DNA of 64,000 bases from assembly GCA_027624955.1 (NCBI GenBank), contig JAQBTG010000003.1, positions 23,163-87,162 on the forward strand, in the 5' to 3' direction. Source of the stretch: Pseudomonadota bacterium (lineage in GTDB: Bacteria; Pseudomonadota; Alphaproteobacteria; UBA828). Below the pieces are notes generated by a model, which saw nothing but the letters and a program-made list of their open reading frames with translations, was not told the DNA's origin and searched no databases. Below are positions 6,806 to 27,635 of this stretch, piece by piece (the first letter of the stretch is position 1; every line of letters starts with the position of its first letter). The translations under genes were made by a program, and so were the position numbers.

Positions 6806-7291
6806 ATGGCGGTGGAATTGCCTTTGGACGAATCTGAGAAAAACCGACGTCGACCCGATTTCGATCTCATTCGTGATTTGGCGGCGCTTCTCGAAGAAAC
6901 CGGCTTGAGCGAGATCGAAATTGGCGGCGGGCCAGAACGGGTACGTGTGGCGCGCACCCTCCATGGCAACGCAATCACGGTGGCGCCGGCGGCTTCAGAT
7001 GCTCTGATAGCTGATATGGCCGATGTGCTGACGGCAGTAAGCGTGGATTCCAGCCATCCAGGCGCTGTTATTTCGCCCTTGGTTGGCGTCGCCTATAACG
7101 CTCCTGAGCCCGGCGCTGAGCCCTTCATCAGGGTTGGCGAGCAAGTGAGCGAAGGACAAACCCTCTTTATCGTCGAAGCAATGAAGACGATGAATCCGAT
7201 TCGCTCGCCGCGCAGCGGCCGGGTAGTTAGAATTTTTGCCGAAAACGGCACGCCAGTAGAATATGGCGAAGTCCTACTGTTGCTAGAATAG
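6806..7291 (+). CDS. accB: Acetyl-CoA carboxylase biotin carboxyl carrier protein
   Basis: C-terminal biotinyl domain with the EAMKTMN biotinylation motif. AAGGA RBS. Lies immediately upstream of accC. Confidence 0.9.
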   Translation: MAVELPLDESEKNRRRPDFDLIRDLAALLEETGLSEIEIGGGPERVRVARTLHGNAITVAPAASDALIADMADVLTAVSVDSSHPGAVISPLVGVAYNAPEPGAEPFIRVGEQVSEGQTLFIVEAMKTMNPIRSPRSGRVVRIFAENGTPVEYGEVLLLLE

Positions 7292-7327
7292 CACCGGCCC
7301 ACATGTCCGTTTAGGCTGCCCAACACA

Positions 7328-8668
7328 ATGTTCGAAAAAGTTCTCATAGCCAATCGCGGCGAGATCGCGGTGCGTATCCATCGCGCCTGCAAGGAATTGG
7401 GAATCAAAACTGTCTCGGTGCATTCGACCGCCGATACCGATGCCATGCATGCCCGCCTCTCTGACGAATCGGTCTGTATTGGACCGGCCTCAGTGCGCGA
7501 CAGCTATCTCAACATACCCTCTATCATTGCCGCCGCGGAAATCACCAATGCCGACGCCATTCATCCCGGCTATGGCTTTCTCTCGGAAAACGCCAATTTT
7601 GCCAGCATTGTTGAGGAGCACGGCTTTACGTTTATCGGACCGACGCCGGCACATATCGCCATGATGGGCGACAAAGTACGGGCCAAGGAGACCATGCAGA
7701 AATTGGGCGTCCCTGTCGTGCCGGGCTCGGCGGGCGCAATGCAAGATATCGCGGAATTCAGTGCCGTCGCCGAGACGATCGGCTATCCGGTTTTGGTAAA
7801 GGCGGTTTCTGGTGGTGGCGGCCGCGGCATGAAGCGGGTCGAGCGCCAGGAAGATATGGCGGCGGCCGTGGCGATGGCCCGCGCCGAGGCGAAATCGGCG
7901 TTCGGCGATGATTCGCTTTATCTGGAGAAATTGATCGACTCCCCGCGACATGTCGAAGTTCAAGTGTTAGCCGATCAGCACGGCACCGTTGTGCACCTCG
8001 GAGAGCGCGATTGCTCACTGCAGCGGCGCCATCAAAAAATGTTGGAAGAAGCTCCCTCCTCTGCGCTGAACACCGAAGAGCGCGAGAGTATCGGTGCCCG
8101 AGTGGTCAAAGCGGTTTCCGAAATCGGCTATCGCGGCGTCGGCACCATGGAGTTTCTATATCAGGCCGGTGAATTCTATTTCATCGAAATGAACACCCGT
8201 ATCCAGGTTGAGCATCCGGTGACCGAAATGATTACCGGTATTGATCTGGTACGCGAGCAAATCCGTGTCGCCGACGGCGCGCCTTTGGGCTACGAGCAAA
8301 AAGATATCGTCTTTAACGGGCACGCCATCGAGTGCCGGGTGAACGCTGAAGATCCGCTTACCTTTCGCCCCTCTCCCGGTTTGATCACCGGGTATCACCC
8401 GCCGGGTGGGCTTGGCGTCCGTGTAGATTCAGCGCTCTATCAGGATTATTCGGTGCCACCCTTTTACGATAGCCTGATCGCTAAGGTCATTGTGCATGGC
8501 TCGAATCGAAACGAATGCCTGATGCGCTTGCGCCGCGCGCTCGAAGAATATGTCATCACCGGCGTTGAAACGACGATTCCGTTTCATCTCAAATTGATCG
8601 CCAATGCCGATTTCGCCAATGGCGCTTATGATATTCATTGGCTGGAGAAATTCATAGCAGAAGCCTAG
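7328..8668 (+). CDS. accC: Acetyl-CoA carboxylase biotin carboxylase subunit
   Basis: 446 aa ATP-grasp biotin carboxylase ([17 protein letters not shown]..., GGGGRGM glycine-rich loop). Confidence 0.95.
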
Positions 8669-8693
8669 GCTTCGGGGGGCATGGGTTGAGCCG

Positions 8694-9341
8694 ATGATTG
8701 AATTGTCGCCAGAACTGATTCTCCGGGCCTATGCGTGTGGCGTATTTCCCATGGCGGAACGCCAGGACGATCCTTCCGTGTTTTGGGTGGACCCGGATTG
8801 GCGCGGCGTCATTCCGTTAGACGAATTTCATTTGCCGCGCCGCCTCGGCCGCACGGTGCGCTCGGGAAAATTCCAAATAACCGTGGATCAGGCGTTCGAC
8901 CAAGTCATCCGTACATGCGCGGAGCGTACCGCACAGCGTATGGAATCATGGATCAATGGTGATATCGTTAAGGTCTATGGCGAGTTGCACCGCCTCGGCA
9001 ACGCCCACAGCGTCGAATGCTGGAGCGGTACTGAATTGGTCGGCGGACTTTACGGCGTGTCGCTTGGCGCCGCCTTTTTTGGCGAAAGCATGTTTAGCCG
9101 CAAAACTGATGCAAGCAAGGTCGCTTTGGTGCATCTGGTTGAGCGCTTGCGCGCCGGTGGCTACACGCTATTGGATACCCAGTTTGTGACTGCGCATTTG
9201 ACCGGTTTCGGCGCTGTCGAGTTGCCGCGCGGAACATATCTTGAGCAATTACGGGCGGCACTAGAGCGCCAGGCGACCTTTTATCCGTTTGATTCGGAAT
9301 TCACTTCCAACATGGCGCAATCGAGCACCCAGACGTCATAG
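8694..9341 (+). CDS. aat: Leucyl/phenylalanyl-tRNA--protein transferase
   Basis: 215 aa starting [20 protein letters not shown]...[13 protein letters not shown], typical of L/F-transferase. Confidence 0.85.
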
Positions 9342-16472: not shown

Positions 16473-17636
16473 TTGAGGCGATCCAAATGGTTCAACATTG
16501 ATATGCCGAAACCTGGGCCGCCCAAGACGGAAATGGAAATCAGCCAAATTTTGGCGGCCGCAGCGCATGACATGCGCCAACCTATTTATTCCCTCAATCT
16601 ATTATTGGCCGCTCTTGCCGGCCGCGCCGAGGACGCTGACACGGCAGCACTTGTAAATGGCGCACAAATATCCGCCGACGGGGTATCAGGCGCGATCGAA
16701 GCAATTCTCGACATTTCCGCTATGCGCGCCGCCGATGCGGAGCCGGATATGGTGGAGTTCGATATCGCCGGATTGTTCAACCATTGCCGCGACCAATTTG
16801 CCGGCCAAGCGGCCACCAAGGGCTTGGAGCTTCGCGTCGTTCCCTGCGCACTCCGTGTGCGGAGCGATCCCCTTCTGTTGCAGCGCCTATTGGATAATTT
16901 GATCTCAAATGCGATACGCCATACTGAGTCGGGCCGGGTGCTGGTCGAATGCCGCCGAGACAAAGATATATTGCTGATCGGCGTCCTCAATAGCGGGCCG
17001 GACTTAGATGAACAGACACTTGCGCTATTTTCTGGGTCGAGAAGGAGTAGCGATTCGGTATCGCGCTCGGCCTGGCGTGGCTTTGCCTTGGGACTATCGA
17101 TCGCGCGCGAGTTCGGCACAATGCTCGGTCACGCCATGTCGATATCTTCCGAGCCGGGACGTGGCACTGCCGTTTGGCTAGAGGTTGGCGTCGCGACGGC
17201 GCGCGGCGAACCGAAAGTATCTTCCGCAGGAATCGCCGCACCCTTGCCTGAGGTCGACGCCATGATCGCGCTCGTGGAAGACGACCCCGAGGTATATTTT
17301 GCGACCTCGGAATTATTGGCCGGTTGGGGATATCAGGTGTTTGGCGGCGCATCGGCCAAGGAGGCGATTGACGACTGTGCGGCAAACGCCGGCGGCAGGT
17401 GCCCTGACCTGCTGCTCTCGGATTTCAAATTGCGGAATGCGCAAACGGCGGTCGATGTGATTATGGGATTTAACCGGCACTTCGATAGCAAGATTCCGGC
17501 AATCATCGTGTCTGGCGATCCTTCGGCGGTGCTCGATGTCGTGGTCGATGGCCTGGAATTTGAGATTTTACAGAAGCCGATCCGCGCAGAAAAACTCCGC
17601 GCGCTCGTGCGCTATGCGCTGGAGAATAGCCGTTAG
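16473..17636 (+). CDS. Hybrid histidine kinase / response-regulator receiver with no sensor or transmembrane domain
   Basis: HisKA H-box (AAAHDMRQPI), HATPase_c (GRGTAVWLEV), then a receiver domain (MIALVEDDPEVYF...LLLSDFKL). No hydrophobic segments. Confidence 0.75.
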   Translation: MRRSKWFNIDMPKPGPPKTEMEISQILAAAAHDMRQPIYSLNLLLAALAGRAEDADTAALVNGAQISADGVSGAIEAILDISAMRAADAEPDMVEFDIAGLFNHCRDQFAGQAATKGLELRVVPCALRVRSDPLLLQRLLDNLISNAIRHTESGRVLVECRRDKDILLIGVLNSGPDLDEQTLALFSGSRRSSDSVSRSAWRGFALGLSIAREFGTMLGHAMSISSEPGRGTAVWLEVGVATARGEPKVSSAGIAAPLPEVDAMIALVEDDPEVYFATSELLAGWGYQVFGGASAKEAIDDCAANAGGRCPDLLLSDFKLRNAQTAVDVIMGFNRHFDSKIPAIIVSGDPSAVLDVVVDGLEFEILQKPIRAEKLRALVRYALENSR

Positions 17637-19739: not shown

Positions 19740-19804
19740 CTAGGCGGATTAATTTCTAGCGTTTCGGCGCTTGTTTTGCCCCGGCGCTCTAGGTAGCGTG
19801 GCGC

Positions 19805-21091
19805 ATGCTTTTAACCCTCCTCGGCACCGGCTGCCCGCAAGTCGATACCCGTCGGTTCGGCCCGTCGCAAATCGTGCGCCATCATGGCGGCACCTATTTG
19901 GTCGATTGCGGCTCGGGCACGACTCAGCGCCTCTATGGCGCGGGCAGCAACGGCGCCGCAGTGGACGCCGTCTTTCTCACCCATCTACATTCGGACCACA
20001 TTGTCGACCTCTTTCAGCTCTTCATTTCGAGTTGGCATCAGGGACGCGACCGGCCGCAATATATCTACGGCCCCAAGGGCACCAAGCGCTATGTCGAAGG
20101 CTTGCTGAAGCTGTGGAAACCGGAATTCAGTCAACGCATCGCGCATGAGATGCGCTCCACCACTGCGGCGCTCGGAGCGGAAGTGGTGGAAATAGAGTCA
20201 GGTGAAGTTTTCCGCTCCGGCGATATGGTTGTGACCGCGGTCGAAGTCGATCACTACCCGGTCAGTCCGGCTTTTGGATTCCTCTTCGAAACCTCGACGG
20301 CTCGCCTGGCCATCAGCGGCGATACCACCTATTGCCCGGCCTTGATCAAGGCCGCCAAGGGTGTCGATGTATTGGTGCATGAAGTCTATATCCATGACGG
20401 CACGCCACAGCGGATGTTGATGCGCGAAAATCAAGGCAGCATCAATGTGATGAGCTATCACACCAGCTCCGACGTAGTCGGCAAAGTGGCACGCGAAATG
20501 GAAGCTGGCGTTCTCGTGCTCAGCCATTTTGTGCCCACTCGATTCGACGAAGAGGAGTTGTTGCAGCAGGTGAGTGCTGATTTTGACGGCCCCATCTTGG
20601 TCGGCGAGGATTTGATGAACGTCGATGTGGAGCAACGCCGGGTATTGAGTTTTGGCATGTCGGTGGCGCTGGGCAAACAGCAAGCGCCAAAGAACAAAAA
20701 ATACAAACCCTTGGATCATCCAACTGCCGCGGCGCAGCAACAGGCGGCAGCCGATGCACAGGCGGCGGTCAGATTGGAGGCAGTTTCCTGGTTAGAAGCC
20801 GCGACTAAGGCGAACGTTCCGACCAAGTTGAAAACTCCGTCCAAGTCGAAAGCTTCGGCCAAGCCGACAACTCCGCCCAAGCCGAAAACTTCAGCCAAGT
20901 CGAAAACTTCAGCCAAGTCGAAGGCTTCAGCCAAGTCGCAAGCTTCAACCAAGTCAAAAACCTCAGCCAAGTCGAGAGTTACGGCCAAGTCAGCAGTTAA
21001 GTCGGCGGCCAAATCTAAAACCAAATCAGGGGCCAAGCCTCGGACCAAGTCTGTTGCCAAGAAGAAAACCAATCGCTCAAAACCATCCTAA
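19805..21091 (+). CDS. MBL-fold metallo-hydrolase (RNase Z/ElaC-like HxHxDH) fused to a Lys/Ser/Ala-rich histone-H1-like repeat tail
   Basis: N-terminal ~300 aa with LTLLGTGCP...THLHSDHI (HxHxDH). The C-terminal ~110 aa are repeats of KSKTSA/KSKASA encoded by 18-bp tandem DNA repeats. Confidence 0.7.
   Translation: MLLTLLGTGCPQVDTRRFGPSQIVRHHGGTYLVDCGSGTTQRLYGAGSNGAAVDAVFLTHLHSDHIVDLFQLFISSWHQGRDRPQYIYGPKGTKRYVEGLLKLWKPEFSQRIAHEMRSTTAALGAEVVEIESGEVFRSGDMVVTAVEVDHYPVSPAFGFLFETSTARLAISGDTTYCPALIKAAKGVDVLVHEVYIHDGTPQRMLMRENQGSINVMSYHTSSDVVGKVAREMEAGVLVLSHFVPTRFDEEELLQQVSADFDGPILVGEDLMNVDVEQRRVLSFGMSVALGKQQAPKNKKYKPLDHPTAAAQQQAAADAQAAVRLEAVSWLEAATKANVPTKLKTPSKSKASAKPTTPPKPKTSAKSKTSAKSKASAKSQASTKSKTSAKSRVTAKSAVKSAAKSKTKSGAKPRTKSVAKKKTNRSKPS
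20842..21003. repeat. About nine imperfect tandem copies of an 18-bp unit (CCAAGTCGAAAACTTCAG) inside the MBL-hydrolase gene
   Basis: Read directly from sequence. Consecutive 18-nt units each encode one KSKxSA hexapeptide. Coordinates may be off by about 1 nt. Confidence 0.7.
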
Positions 21092-21148
21092 TCCCCATCG
21101 CGCCGCCGGAAGCTGAATTCAGCGGAGTTCACACGCGGAGATCACACA

Positions 21149-21922
21149 ATGACGAAAAGAAGAGTCTTGGTCTTGGTTCCGGTGGTGCTGGATGAAAGCG
21201 GTCTTGCCAAACGACGGGCGCAGCAAAATTCGGTCGAACTTGGCCCCGACATTGAGTTTGATTATCGCCCGGTTAAGGCCGGCCCCGCGCTCTACGACAG
21301 CTATCACGATTTTGCCCTGGCCGATGTCGCGATGTTCGAGGCCGGTCTCAGCGCCGAGCAAGACGGCTATGACGCAGTGTGCATCGATACCATGAGCGAT
21401 TCCGGCGTCAACGCGTTGCGCTCGGTATTGGACATTCCTGTCATCGCGCCCGCCAAAGCGTCCTACCTGATGTGTCTTCTTCTCGCCACCCGCTTCGGCG
21501 TCCTGACCCAGTGGGACCGCTGGGACATCATCTATCGCAAAACCTTGCAAGAATACGGCCTCGCCGACAAATGCGTCGGCTTCCGTTCGCCAGGCCTCGC
21601 GCCTGATCCCGTAAACCTGCTCGGCGGCAAGGAAGACGTGGTATTCCCGCAATTCCTCAAATGCGGCCAGGAATTGGTTGAGATGGGCGCAGAGGCAATT
21701 TGTCTTGGCTCCACCACCATGCATGAAGCGCATGAATTCCTAGCGCGCGAGCTGCCAGTACCGGTGATTAATCCAGGACCGTTAACCTACAAACTTGCTG
21801 AAACAGTGCTCGGCATGGGCCTCAGCCACAGCCGCAAAGCCTACCCGCCGCCAAGCTATCTCAAACTCAATCTGGCCCACGCCATGATGGATGGTGCCGC
21901 AGCTTTTGACGGTGAGGATTGA
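21149..21922 (+). CDS. Asp/Glu/hydantoin racemase family protein
   Basis: 257 aa whose two-subdomain pattern (VLVLVPV...CIDTMSDSG...VIAP...LGST) resembles hydantoin/arylmalonate racemase-type enzymes. Family call only. Confidence 0.5.
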   Translation: MTKRRVLVLVPVVLDESGLAKRRAQQNSVELGPDIEFDYRPVKAGPALYDSYHDFALADVAMFEAGLSAEQDGYDAVCIDTMSDSGVNALRSVLDIPVIAPAKASYLMCLLLATRFGVLTQWDRWDIIYRKTLQEYGLADKCVGFRSPGLAPDPVNLLGGKEDVVFPQFLKCGQELVEMGAEAICLGSTTMHEAHEFLARELPVPVINPGPLTYKLAETVLGMGLSHSRKAYPPPSYLKLNLAHAMMDGAAAFDGED

Positions 21923-21926
21923 CGCG

Positions 21927-23306
21927 TTAATTCTTGACGAACTTGTCGTCGATAATATCGAGCGCCTGATCTAGAGAATCGATTGCCAGGTCAATCTCGT
22001 CCTGGGTGATCGTAAACGGCGGCCCGAGCTTGATAGTGTTAGGCGTGAATCCACCGAGGAAGATGCCGCGCTTGGCGTTTTCGCCGGCGATGATGTTATT
22101 GGGCATCTGCGTGAGATCACCGGTAAATGCCGAATACCGGTCTTCCGGCACGATCGGTGTGCCCTCGCCGTTTATCAGATCGACCGTATAGAAAAGGCCG
22201 CGCCCCGACACACGGCCGATGGACGGGTGTTTCTCATCAAGGGCGTCGAGGCGCTCTTTGAGGTAGGCGCCGCGCTGACGCACCTGTTGCAGCATGTTGT
22301 TGGCCAGCATGTATTCGAGATTGCCGACGATGGTGGCACAGACCAGCGGATGGCCATCCCAGGTACTGCCGCTCCACCAGCGCGCAGCTTCAAAATGCTC
22401 AGAAATTTCCTTACTGGCGATGACCGCGCCGACCGGCAATGCCGAGCCGTTCAACCCTTTGCCGGCGGCGATCAGATCAGGTTCGACTCCCGGCCAATGC
22501 ATATAGCCGAACCATTCGCCAAGGCGGCCGACGCCGCAGATCACTTCGTCATCGATCCACAGGAAGCCGTGGCGCTTGGAAATATCCCTGAGGCCGGCGG
22601 TGTAGTCACGGTGCGGAAACGTGCCGCCAGCGCCCAGCATGGGTTCGGTAATCACCGCCGCAATATTCTCACCGCCAATGGCACGGACGATCTGCTCGGT
22701 GGCTTCCAGCGATGGAAGACGACCCGTACCCTGCCAATCCTCAAACTCGGGCGCGGGAATGGGAATATAGCCCTGCGCCGGAAATCCGGGGACGTCCTGA
22801 ACTTGATTAAAATTTCCGGCCGGCGAGATATTCGCGCGGTACCCACGCGCCATTGTTGAGCCCATGACCATGCCATGGAACGAATGCGCCTGGGTGAGGA
22901 TGACGGATTTCCCGGTATAGAGCCGTGCCATGGTGATGCAGCTTTCCACCGCATCGGTGCCGGAAGAGAAAATCCTTGCCCGGCCAGCCCAGCCCGCCTC
23001 GCCGAGCAAATCCTCAATGATCAGTTTGGCCGCCCTGGCGCGATACTCATTGGCCATACCAAAATAGACATGGCCGTAGCGCTCCATAGCGCGTGTTAAT
23101 TCGGCATGGATAGCGGGATGACGGTGGCCCATGCTGTCCGATATAAGCTGACTCATAAAATCGAGCATGCGGGTGCCGTCCGCTAACGTAAACCAATTGC
23201 CGTCCATGCTATCGACCGGGGCATAGGTATGTTCAGACGCCGCTTGCAAACCGTGCAGGTAGTAGGAACGGTCCCATTTTTCTAATTGATCCCAATCACG
23301 CGACAT
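21927..23306 (-). CDS. Class III (omega) aminotransferase
   Basis: 459 aa with the class-III PLP motif DEVICGVGRLGEWFGY and an upstream TGxxxA... region. Confidence 0.85.
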   Translation of the reverse strand: MSRDWDQLEKWDRSYYLHGLQAASEHTYAPVDSMDGNWFTLADGTRMLDFMSQLISDSMGHRHPAIHAELTRAMERYGHVYFGMANEYRARAAKLIIEDLLGEAGWAGRARIFSSGTDAVESCITMARLYTGKSVILTQAHSFHGMVMGSTMARGYRANISPAGNFNQVQDVPGFPAQGYIPIPAPEFEDWQGTGRLPSLEATEQIVRAIGGENIAAVITEPMLGAGGTFPHRDYTAGLRDISKRHGFLWIDDEVICGVGRLGEWFGYMHWPGVEPDLIAAGKGLNGSALPVGAVIASKEISEHFEAARWWSGSTWDGHPLVCATIVGNLEYMLANNMLQQVRQRGAYLKERLDALDEKHPSIGRVSGRGLFYTVDLINGEGTPIVPEDRYSAFTGDLTQMPNNIIAGENAKRGIFLGGFTPNTIKLGPPFTITQDEIDLAIDSLDQALDIIDDKFVKN

Positions 23307-23376: not shown

Positions 23377-24876
23377 ATGATAGCGCCCGGACTTAAGTTG
23401 AGAAACGCGATTCGATACACCGTAAGCAAAAGCAGTTTGGCGATAAGGTCAGTGGTGTCGATACAAGGTAAACGGGACGACTCAAAATCCCCAGTTGGCC
23501 AACCCACTTCTCGGCCGATCGGATTGTTGCGTGCATTGGACCGTTTGGCGTCGTGCTGGGTCAAGGATCAGGATTACCCAGACCTCGATGACAGATTGCG
23601 GGCAAAAGTTTTTGTTGTCGCGCATTTCCTGTCGCCCAACCTGGCGCTTGCCATCGCGGCCATGCTCTATTTTGGCGCCGATGTTGCGACACCGAGCCTC
23701 TATTGGTTGGTCCTCGGGTTCGCCCTCTTTTTCGTTTATCCCTTTGTTATCAAATGGGGACTATCTTACCGCGCCGCCAGCGTACCTTCTCTGGTGCAGT
23801 TTTCGCTGCTGATTTTTTCAGCGCTTTACTATTTCAACGGCATCCAATCGTTCGTAATCCCCTGGATTGCCTCGATTCCGGTGATCGGCATGTTGTTTCT
23901 TGGCGTGCGCGGCGCAATTTTGACCTGCCTCCTGGCAACGGCCGGACTCTTGACCATGCTCCTGCTCTATCTATCCGGGCACGAGTTTCCGCAGACGGTG
24001 GTCGGAGAGTGGCGCTCGCTGGCGTTTATCTTTTCGGCCGCGCTGTGCGTCATATTCATATCGGGCGCCGTGCTTTCTCATTTGAGCCTGTATGATTTGT
24101 CGCAGCGCCGTTTGAAACTCGAGTTGATGCGGCACCAACAAACGACGGCTCGGTATCGTCAGGCAAGAGACGCGGCGAATCAGGCCAGCCTCGCAAAATC
24201 GCGATTTTTGGCCACCGCTTCGCACGAATTTCGTACGCCTCTCACGACGATTCAGGCCGGTGTCGACCTACTGTTGCGATACCGCGATAAGATTGACGAA
24301 GCTCAAGGGGCGGAGTACCTCCGCGATGTCACGCGGCAGGTAAAAACGATCACACGGCTCCTGGATAATCTTTTGCTGGTCGGCGAAGAAGACGCGACCG
24401 ATATCGTTTTTCAGCCTGAGGCGATCAAGCTCGCCGATGTCTGCGAGGACATGCTGCGACAAATGCGCCTTGGCGCCCAGGAAAGCCAGGGATTGAAAAT
24501 CAATTTTTCCGGAGATTGTAAAACCGCATTTATGGACGAAGGGATCGTTAGACGAATCCTCTCGAACCTGCTGTCGAACGCGATTAAATATTCGCCGCGC
24601 GAGTCCGAAGTCTTGCTTACAGTGACGCGCCGCGACGACAGTGTCGAGATTCGCGTTGACGATCAGGGTGAAGGCATTGCCGAGGACGAAGTCGAACGTA
24701 TCTTCGAACGCTATTACCGCGTGAGCAGCACGTCACGGGTGGGCGGCACCGGCCTGGGATTATCGATCGTCAGGGCGGCCGTGGAAGCGCATCACGGGAC
24801 GATCCGGGTGGAAAGCCAGAGCGGCGAGGGAAGCAGCTTTATTGTGACCTTGCCGGCTTCTCCCGTTGAGATATGA
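23377..24876 (+). CDS. Membrane-bound sensor histidine kinase
   Basis: About 6 predicted TM helices in the first ~240 aa, then HisKA (ATASHEFRTPLTTIQ) and HATPase_c (GGTGLGLSIV). The true start may be downstream of the track start. Confidence 0.75.
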   Translation: MIAPGLKLRNAIRYTVSKSSLAIRSVVSIQGKRDDSKSPVGQPTSRPIGLLRALDRLASCWVKDQDYPDLDDRLRAKVFVVAHFLSPNLALAIAAMLYFGADVATPSLYWLVLGFALFFVYPFVIKWGLSYRAASVPSLVQFSLLIFSALYYFNGIQSFVIPWIASIPVIGMLFLGVRGAILTCLLATAGLLTMLLLYLSGHEFPQTVVGEWRSLAFIFSAALCVIFISGAVLSHLSLYDLSQRRLKLELMRHQQTTARYRQARDAANQASLAKSRFLATASHEFRTPLTTIQAGVDLLLRYRDKIDEAQGAEYLRDVTRQVKTITRLLDNLLLVGEEDATDIVFQPEAIKLADVCEDMLRQMRLGAQESQGLKINFSGDCKTAFMDEGIVRRILSNLLSNAIKYSPRESEVLLTVTRRDDSVEIRVDDQGEGIAEDEVERIFERYYRVSSTSRVGGTGLGLSIVRAAVEAHHGTIRVESQSGEGSSFIVTLPASPVEI

Positions 24877-27560: not shown

Positions 27561-27635
27561 TGGCGACCCCTACGAGAATTGAACTCGTGTCTCCACTGTG
27601 AAAGAGTGGTGTCCTAACCTCTAGACGAAGGGGTC
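27561..27635 (-). tRNA. tRNA-Glu (anticodon UUC)
   Basis: 75-nt cloverleaf folded by hand: 7-bp acceptor stem (GACCCCT/AGGGGTC), D arm GTCT/GGAC, anticodon stem CCACT/AGTGG with loop CTTTCAC, T arm ACGAG-TTCAATT-CTCGT, discriminator G and encoded CCA. 5' half nearly identical to E. coli tRNA-Glu. Confidence 0.8.

Follow-up and report, generated by a model that had tools for sequence, protein, structure and literature searches.

A marine alphaproteobacterial metallo-beta-lactamase-fold hydrolase with a lineage-restricted polycationic tail containing an 18-bp tandem repeat array

We analysed a 64-kb window, the whole stretch of DNA under study, from an uncultured marine alphaproteobacterium; all coordinates are positions within it. 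At 19805..21091 on the forward strand, an open reading frame (ORF) identified from the ORF list begins with ATG and encodes 428 aa plus a stop, specifying a hydrolase of the metallo-beta-lactamase (MBL) fold with a C-terminal polycationic extension. The source is a metagenome-assembled genome (MAG) and short reads can mis-assemble short tandem arrays, two points in favour of viewing the repeat tract within this gene, or its frame, as an assembly error. An earlier sequence-only reading of the ORF had itself named a missing or out-of-frame repeat as what would undo its claims. The gene is nevertheless no artefact, because its DNA is 100% identical in other assemblies. The 1287-bp gene was base-for-base the same, with the repeat in frame, in the four further assemblies compared (L001-L004: the NCBI MAG GCA_027592445.1, a pair of ENA assemblies from different samples and the Logan assembly of SRR2027830), representing at least three samples or runs and different pipelines, and the same 428-aa product was called on five contigs from independent assemblies. 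In addition, other lineages carry in-frame orthologous tails, and the imperfect 174-bp array falls within the span of read pairs. An assembly error is thus effectively refuted, and we give it next to no weight.

The first part of the ORF (19805..20674, +; aa 1-290) encodes a catalytic MBL domain of the ElaC/RNase Z-like branch, delimited by Pfam, NCBIfam, PDB and fold matches. The domain exceeded both Pfam gathering thresholds, for PF12706 (E = 7.6e-20 over aa 31-242; 71.8 bits against a cut-off of 27) and for PF00753 (E = 1.4e-10; 41.9 bits against 22.7), and with all metal ligands present it belongs to the MBL superfamily. Motif II, the metal-binding HxHxDH motif, reads THLHSDHI (19979..20002, +; aa 59-66), and T59, H60, L61, H62, S63, D64 and H65 were invariant across 43 aligned sequences. 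The same alignment of 43 homologues showed invariance of the full set of H60, H62, D64, H65, H150, D173 and H241, as well as of H192-E193 and H219, which lie in the VHEV and YHT (Y218-H219-T220) segments. The earlier proposal of an N-terminal MBL enzyme carrying THLHSDHI was therefore borne out for the first 290 aa or so.

Structural prediction agreed with this assignment. In the AlphaFold2 (AF2) model, the domain forms an alpha-beta/beta-alpha sandwich with a predicted local distance difference test (pLDDT) score of mostly 84-97 (aa 21-190 and 221-290), lower values over aa 11-20 and 191-220, and a segment below 50 at 199-207. The domain is acidic (net charge −11, isoelectric point (pI) 5.5), and no signal peptide was found in it. 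We considered the N-terminal LLGTGC as a lipobox and rejected it: this segment forms the first strand of the MBL core, its conservation matches that in RNase Z, and a signal sequence is lacking. With the high confidence that we attach jointly to the descriptive part of this work, we regard the protein as cytoplasmic and as retaining the metal-binding and catalytic residues conserved in the ElaC/RNase Z-like MBL branch; analogy with the branch makes it a probable binuclear-zinc phosphodiesterase. Its nearest solved relatives by sequence were E. coli RNase Z, a Pseudoalteromonas MBL-type arylsulfatase (8gyg) and PNGM-1. By fold, Foldseek ranked 8gyg first (E = 1.5e-23, TM score 0.81 on the target, 26% identity), followed by B. 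subtilis and E. coli RNase Z, PNGM-1, the B. anthracis ElaC homologue and YhfI.

We then asked how close the enzyme stands to RNase Z itself. Placement in an RNase Z-like branch, as first suggested, was upheld by the best NCBIfam, PDB-sequence and Foldseek matches, which were to RNase Z, PNGM-1 and the MBL arylsulfatase; membership in RNase Z proper was not. The top NCBIfam matches were all RNase Z models and all fell far under their curated cut-offs (TIGR02651, 122.2 against 292.95; NF000806, 179.3 against 363; NF000801, 124.1 against 252), even though the NF000806 alignment ran the full length of the model (3-278 against 4-279 of 280). The flexible arm, or exosite, of true RNase Z protrudes from the enzyme and binds the T-arm and acceptor stem of tRNA (PMC7479834), and we found no counterpart of it: residues 158-205 of the E. 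coli RNase Z chain were unmatched, splitting the alignment in two, and in the AF2 model the arm position, between strands 141-147 and 157-162, is taken up by a loop of just 9 residues. The domain is thus in the ElaC/RNase Z-like branch and not an RNase Z proper, because its scores are below cut-off and the arm is absent, two defining tests of an RNase Z. The remaining catalytic segments did not discriminate. VHEV and YHT aligned to the VHEAT and GHSST segments of the E. coli enzyme, and we take HE (192-193) and YHT (218-220) as the equivalents of the ‘HEAT’ and ‘HST’ motifs of RNase Z, yet the arm-less non-RNase relative 8gyg has both. Of the subfamilies that the sequence-only reading had named for a homology search (RNase Z, PhnP or ElaC), the matches led to the ElaC/RNase Z-like branch, with both the PhnP and the RNase Z models under cut-off. 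Models for GntH and cyclic-nucleotide phosphodiesterases, like that for PhnP, scored far under their cut-offs, and the protein did not qualify as an anti-Pycsar Apyc1 or cyclic-nucleotide phosphodiesterase MBL (PF23023, 19.7 against 50; NF041851, 77.3 against 400).

Direct comparison with solved structures gave the same picture. The E. coli ZiPD (2cbn) and B. subtilis (1y44) enzymes of the RNase Z/ElaC group share the branch and its residues (HxHxDH, His150, Asp173, His241, HE and YHT) with the window domain at ~25% identity (Foldseek E = 1e-20 to 1e-21, TM score 0.7-0.8 on the target); however, they have the tRNA arm, whereas the window protein is arm-less, scores below threshold and bears a basic tail that none of its RNase Z matches shows. 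The best structural matches were instead arm-less MBL proteins with a compact domain like that of the window protein, namely 8gyg from Pseudoalteromonas atlantica, PNGM-1 (6j4n), the B. anthracis ElaC homologue (1zkp) and B. subtilis YhfI (6kns), although these share only 19-26% identity with it and none has a basic tail. PNGM-1 shows that RNase and other hydrolase activities can be combined in this branch (PMC6882493).

Could the protein still be the organism’s genuine RNase Z, the endonuclease for tRNA 3' trailers, whose basic tail takes the place of the arm in binding tRNA? Several observations lean that way: RNase Z models are the top NCBIfam matches, one of them aligned over its full length; the catalytic residues are invariant, including the HE and YHT equivalents; JGI pipelines name homologues ‘ribonuclease Z’; the gene lies directly 3' of rpoD in 18 distant loci; and PNGM-1, a relative within the branch, has tRNase Z activity (PMC6882493). 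The scores far below every curated cut-off and the missing flexible arm argue against it, and NCBI names the homologues only ‘MBL fold metallo-hydrolase’. More than 95% of the family is without a tail, so the tail cannot be the family’s general RNA-binding device. The sole tRNA gene in the window, tRNA-Glu(UUC) at 27561-27635 (−), has its 3' CCA genomically encoded, a situation in which RNase Z is dispensable for 3' maturation, though this is a sample of one. Taken together, we consider this identity very unlikely.

The region that follows the domain has four parts. It opens with a basic patch, KQQAPKNKKYKP; all members of the clade described below share an extension that is basic from the start. 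Alignments delimit this first basic patch together with a Pro-containing connector, GKQQAPKNKKYKPLDHP, at 20675..20725 (+; aa 291-307). There follows an Ala/Gln-rich predicted alpha-helix, TAAAQQQAAADAQAAVRLEAVSWLEAATKA, at 20726..20812 (+; aa 308-336), which forms an AF2 block of pLDDT 63-81 and was found in the closest orthologues only (L005, L092 and L010). The array itself occupies 20813..20992 (+), where Tandem Repeats Finder (TRF), a codon-register table and alignments identified ~10 18-bp units encoding hexapeptides. Finally, alignments define a non-periodic basic C-terminal end of ~32 aa, AVKSAAKSKTKSGAKPRTKSVAKKKTNRSKPS, at 20993..21088 (+), which, in close orthologues, is conserved better than any other part of the tail (…AKPR.KPVAKKK…R.KPS).

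TRF reported a period of 18 over 20818-20991 with 9.7 copies, 79% matches, no indels and a score of 138, while super-periods of 36 and 54 bp scored 173-184; in a repeat search the 18-bp register was visible from 20802 to 20999. The units encode hexapeptides of the K-[ST]-K-x-S-A type, such as KTSAKS, KASAKS, QASTKS, TTPPKP and similar. The tandem 18-bp organization inferred earlier is therefore confirmed, but the units are not near-perfect as had been stated, since only two (20885 and 20903) are identical and the rest differ at 2-6 of 18 positions. Likewise, the repeats do not extend over ~110 aa: the periodic part spans ~10 hexapeptides, or ~60 aa, and the rest is heterogeneous. The array also begins ~25-30 bp upstream of the start first assigned to it, 20842.

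We next considered the composition of the tail. Over aa 341-428 (88 aa) we counted 26 Lys, 3 Arg and no Asp or Glu, giving a net charge of +29 and a pI of about 12, with 30% Lys, 23% Ser, 16% Ala and 12% Thr and a combined Ser and Thr content of 35%. Since AF2 pLDDT was below 50 for aa 365-422, the tail is, by prediction, intrinsically disordered as well as polycationic. In a six-frame translation of the window, no other segment reaches 10 Lys within 40 residues. The label ‘histone-H1-like’ given to it earlier holds for its polycationic, disordered, short-period composition and not for homology: no match to Pfam was found for the linker plus tail, or for the tail alone, at E <= 10 beyond two noise matches (E = 6-9), and among 794 word-sharing candidates from 5.8 billion proteins no tail homologue was found at E <= 1e-3. 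The tails of H1, AlgP and PhaF are Ala/Pro-rich, whereas the window tail is much richer in Ser/Thr (35%). We also considered whether tail-bearing domains compensate for the tail’s charge; they were barely more acidic than tail-less ones (−10.7 against −7.7, sd 2.9), and this comparison was not informative. An antisense ORF of 118 aa, Asp/Leu/Ala-rich (20716-21072, −), mirrors the repeat array; we rejected it as a gene, since it arises as a side effect of a repeat unit free of stops and has no independent support.

To place the tail in its family, we searched 5.8 billion proteins with the sequence and obtained 3231 matches at E <= 1e-5 among the 8000 candidates scored. The best 120 matches all belonged to the same MBL family and were mostly 288-305 aa long. 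Full-length alignment of the domain at 53-64% identity places the window protein in an alphaproteobacterial MBL family of ~292 aa, whose signatures LLGTGCP, DCGSG, THLHSDH, SSWHQ.R.R, GDT and YHT are invariant. We surveyed the tail at 80 loci from named genomes. About 70 of these, at 53-64% identity and from taxa that include Kiloniellaceae, Ferrovibrio, Pelagibius, Reyranellales and Stellaceae, stop within a few residues of the domain, at ~292 aa, whereas the six loci at 71% identity or above carry a basic or syntenic tail. Extensions were confined to this closest clade (>=71% identity), composed of marine MAGs such as MarineAlpha10_Bin2, and all were basic. Their lengths ranged from 28-32 aa (L012, L013, L015 and L016) through 63-70 aa (L014 and P0004), 98 aa (P0001/L005) and ~106 aa (L092) to 138 aa in the window protein. 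The tails of P0004 and L014 contain 21-26 Lys plus Arg, with the L014 tail (KPKATAKAK…) holding 26 and no Asp or Glu; they are unlike the window tail in sequence and share its basic character.

More distant relatives lacked comparable extensions. A HMMER scan of 1.84 billion representative proteins recovered 9957 relatives at E <= 1e-3, none of which aligned beyond aa ~301 of the query, and the four longest other C-terminal extensions that we inspected (P0176, P0209, P0246 and P0264) were globular or unrelated, none being polycationic. Apparent full-length matches at seven loci (query 1-413 or 1-428; L023, L027, L053, L060, L075, L101 and L122) were rejected as tblastn joins across a stop; the proteins there are tail-less and 292-304 aa long. 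At 33-40% identity, an N-terminal extension of 30-60 aa is present in many relatives, where it may point to export; the window protein has none. Judging from these alignments, it is very likely that the window protein comes from an uncharacterised alphaproteobacterial MBL family, normally ~292 aa and tail-less, in which the tail is restricted to one small marine clade.

Within that clade, the copy number of the 18-bp unit at the same site varied from 9.7 in the window to 6.7 in L014, 5.7 in L010 and 2.4 in L005, with none detectable in L011. Compared with both L005 and L092, its closest intact orthologues, the window gene is longer by 108 bp, exactly six units, and shows further 12-bp in-frame differences; indeed, every indel between intact orthologues was in frame. 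We conclude with good confidence that slippage-type 18-bp amplification lengthened the tail by six units in the window genome. The array had the same length in all five assemblies of this population. The earlier description of the tract as a slipped-strand hotspot is accordingly supported by variation between lineages, from 0 to ~10 units and including the 108-bp difference, and not within this population.

We estimated the ratio of nonsynonymous to synonymous substitution rates (dN/dS) by the Nei-Gojobori method, and low-complexity alignment and the small number of codons bias the values for the tail. Between the window and L005, dN/dS was 0.095 for the domain and 0.27 for the linker plus tail over 98 alignable codons; against L010, L011 and L014 the linker plus tail gave 0.23-0.28. 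Every intact tail was strongly basic and had few acidic residues or none, including tails of unrelated sequence. From these comparisons, the tail appears, with a confidence as high as for the other descriptive conclusions, to be under weaker yet real purifying selection, evolving several-fold faster than the domain and not neutrally.

How might such a tail have arisen, and what might it do? A small marine lineage gained a basic, disordered C-terminal extension on an acidic MBL enzyme, and in the window genome 18-bp amplification of the replication-slippage type then lengthened this extension to give an 88-aa tail of net +29 on a domain of net −11. We propose that the tail has an accessory role and would tether the enzyme to a polyanion by charge, with no sequence specificity, raising the enzyme’s local concentration or residence time there, and that it would not be required for catalysis itself. 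As a whole, this account of a branch enzyme with a slippage-grown tail and a tether is our best explanation, with a probability of roughly 0.5; the tethering role taken singly, which we draw from analogy, is tentative and falls somewhat short of even odds. RNA would be the most plausible polyanion, because the core is RNase Z-like yet is without the RNA-binding arm, which it lost or never had. It is a more speculative and rather doubtful extension of this idea that the tail functionally replaces the missing arm, or localises the enzyme to the nucleoid, ribosomes, RNA condensates or polyphosphate (polyP) granules, with repeat number tuning affinity.

A number of observations weigh against the tether proposal. 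The top fold match is an arylsulfatase and not a nuclease, and the clade neighbours are metabolic genes (sugar and amino acid), none of them RNA-related, so that the gene context at the window locus gives no support to the nucleoid or RNA tethering that the sequence-only reading had suggested. The five-fold spread in tail length fits weak constraint, and the dN/dS values of the tail carry the bias and the small codon sample noted above. Moreover, the L010 orthologue (94% identity over an aligned stretch that covers 72% of the query) has an in-frame TAA, brought in by an 18-bp insertion shortly after the domain, and a frameshift further on; the enzyme is thereby kept at 323 aa without the tail, and the neighbouring genes are all intact. 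These lesions reflect either recent tail loss or an assembly error, and if they are real the tail would be dispensable.

The principal competitor of the tether is an essentially neutral origin, under which a short basic appendix was inflated by 18-bp slippage and tolerated, doing nothing specific on an enzyme whose substrate is soluble and possibly a small molecule. Such a history is in line with the lack of a tail at ~70 homologous loci and in all distant relatives, with the 28-138 aa range inside one clade, with the L010 tail cut by a stop and a frameshift amid intact neighbours, with the metabolic local context and with nonsynonymous change about 3-5 times faster in the tail than in the domain. 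It is harder to reconcile with dN/dS values of 0.23-0.28, well under 1 in four comparisons, and with intact tails that are all strongly basic and nearly or wholly free of acidic residues despite unrelated sequences. The in-frame nature of all indels between intact orthologues and the conserved terminal motif AKPR.KPVAKKK…R.KPS also speak against it. On balance we find an essentially neutral tail unlikely, while ranking it above the other alternatives considered here.

If the tail is a tether, RNA need not be what it binds. It could instead target polyP granules, polyhydroxyalkanoate (PHA) granules or the anionic inner-membrane leaflet and place the hydrolase there. PhaF and PhaM associate with PHA granules, and the polycationic, disordered composition of the window tail would suit such a target. 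The Lys/Ala/Pro-repeat protein AlgP is found at polyP granules and spaces them (PMC9239181). However, the tail has no homology to AlgP, PhaF or Hc1, the neighbourhood examined contains no ppk, ppx or pha genes, and nothing here tells polyP from RNA or DNA. We therefore regard these other polyanions as improbable targets, more so than a neutral tail.

Comparison with other lysine-rich proteins helps to place the proposed tether. The best functional analogy is with the lysine repeats of topoisomerase I in Streptomyces and other actinobacteria, which stabilise the enzyme-DNA complex (PMC5714199), and with the PAKKA lysine repeats of M. smegmatis Ku (PMC3553676), the tails in these cases having an experimentally demonstrated effect in stabilising the complex or modulating DNA binding; as in the window protein, a lineage-specific, length-variable, Lys-rich low-complexity C-terminus is set on a conserved core. 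These proteins differ from ours in having unrelated catalytic domains, an established nucleic-acid substrate and Lys/Ala/Pro-rich tails, whereas the window tail is Lys/Ser/Thr/Ala-rich. AlgP (PMC9239181) and Chlamydia Hc2 (PMC2848022) likewise consist of polycationic tandem short peptides encoded by short DNA repeats, but they are compositional analogues only, being stand-alone structural proteins with no detectable homology to the window protein, which is an enzyme fusion with 35% Ser plus Thr in its tail. The repeat number of Hc2 differs between strains (PMC2848022), while the window array varies between lineages, with no within-population variation seen.

A basic low-complexity tail on an enzyme is a well-known principle, and the present case is a modest, lineage-specific one; our searches of the literature turned up no RNase Z/MBL enzyme described as having a lysine-rich tail. 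If the proposal is true, this would be a recent natural case in which a metabolic-looking hydrolase gained a disordered electrostatic tether that slippage adjusts. The clade would then provide, on near-identical domains, a naturally graded set of tails of 0 (in the truncated allele), ~30, 60, 100 and 138 aa, which could show how disordered polycationic extensions alter substrate access and how fast slippage tunes them. It would also open a first route to the function of a widespread alphaproteobacterial MBL family with thousands of matches, some of them beside rpoD. If the tail is neutral, the array would be an ordinary low-complexity expansion at a protein terminus.

We finally examined the gene neighbourhood. 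A gene of the Asp/Glu/hydantoin-racemase family (21149..21922, +; PF01177, E = 6.9e-30) lies 57 bp downstream of the MBL gene in the same orientation, and the interval contains no terminator-like site; the sole site of that kind is upstream of the MBL gene at 19758-19771. No promoter-like site was found for the MBL gene, and an Rfam scan found no RNA family at it. Across the clade, divergent nagA and ROK kinase genes flank the MBL gene, and a convergent class-III aminotransferase gene lies beyond the racemase gene, an arrangement confined to the tail-bearing clade (6 of 80 loci). The distant homologues lie elsewhere: directly 3' of rpoD at 18 loci, after trpD-trpC-moaC-moeA at 13 and near an acyl-CoA synthetase gene at nine. 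We therefore set aside guilt by association as a guide to function, because the neighbours differ between the clade and the distant loci and there is no consistent functional partner. Among the tail-less members (loci L018-L091), in which placement beside housekeeping genes thus recurs, the gap to rpoD is 85 bp in L049 (1856-3916) and the gap on the moeA side is 5 bp in L077 (2785-3996).

Several further features of the locus were recorded. Directly 5' of the ATG of the racemase-family gene (21149), a 13-bp unit, GCGGAG(T/A)TCACAC, is tandemly duplicated at 21122-21147, and each copy holds a GGAG Shine-Dalgarno-like core. L005 has two copies of this unit, L010 one and L011 one diverged copy; the duplication could be a candidate duplicated ribosome-binding site or operator. 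The class-III aminotransferase gene (21927-23306, −; 459 aa) is intact in the window and was called as two fragments in L003 (8123-9522; same population, with a shift of ~20 bp) and in L011 (8159-9538), where a frameshift or assembly error may be responsible. Two sensor histidine kinase genes, at 16473-17636 (+) and 23377-24876 (+), bracket the block formed by the nagA/ROK, MBL, racemase and aminotransferase genes; one product is a hybrid with a receiver domain and the other has a multi-pass membrane N-terminus, and both genes are syntenic in the clade. In L010, tail DNA persists past the stop (6950-7300, orthologous to window 20750-21100), with the 18-bp unit present in 5.7 copies at 90% matches alongside a perfect 12-bp unit, encoding RPRT, in 5.2 copies. 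The same locus contains an extra ORF of 264 aa with no Pfam match between the racemase and aminotransferase genes (8318-9112), and an IS66-family transposase gene lies at its edge, from 12972 onward.

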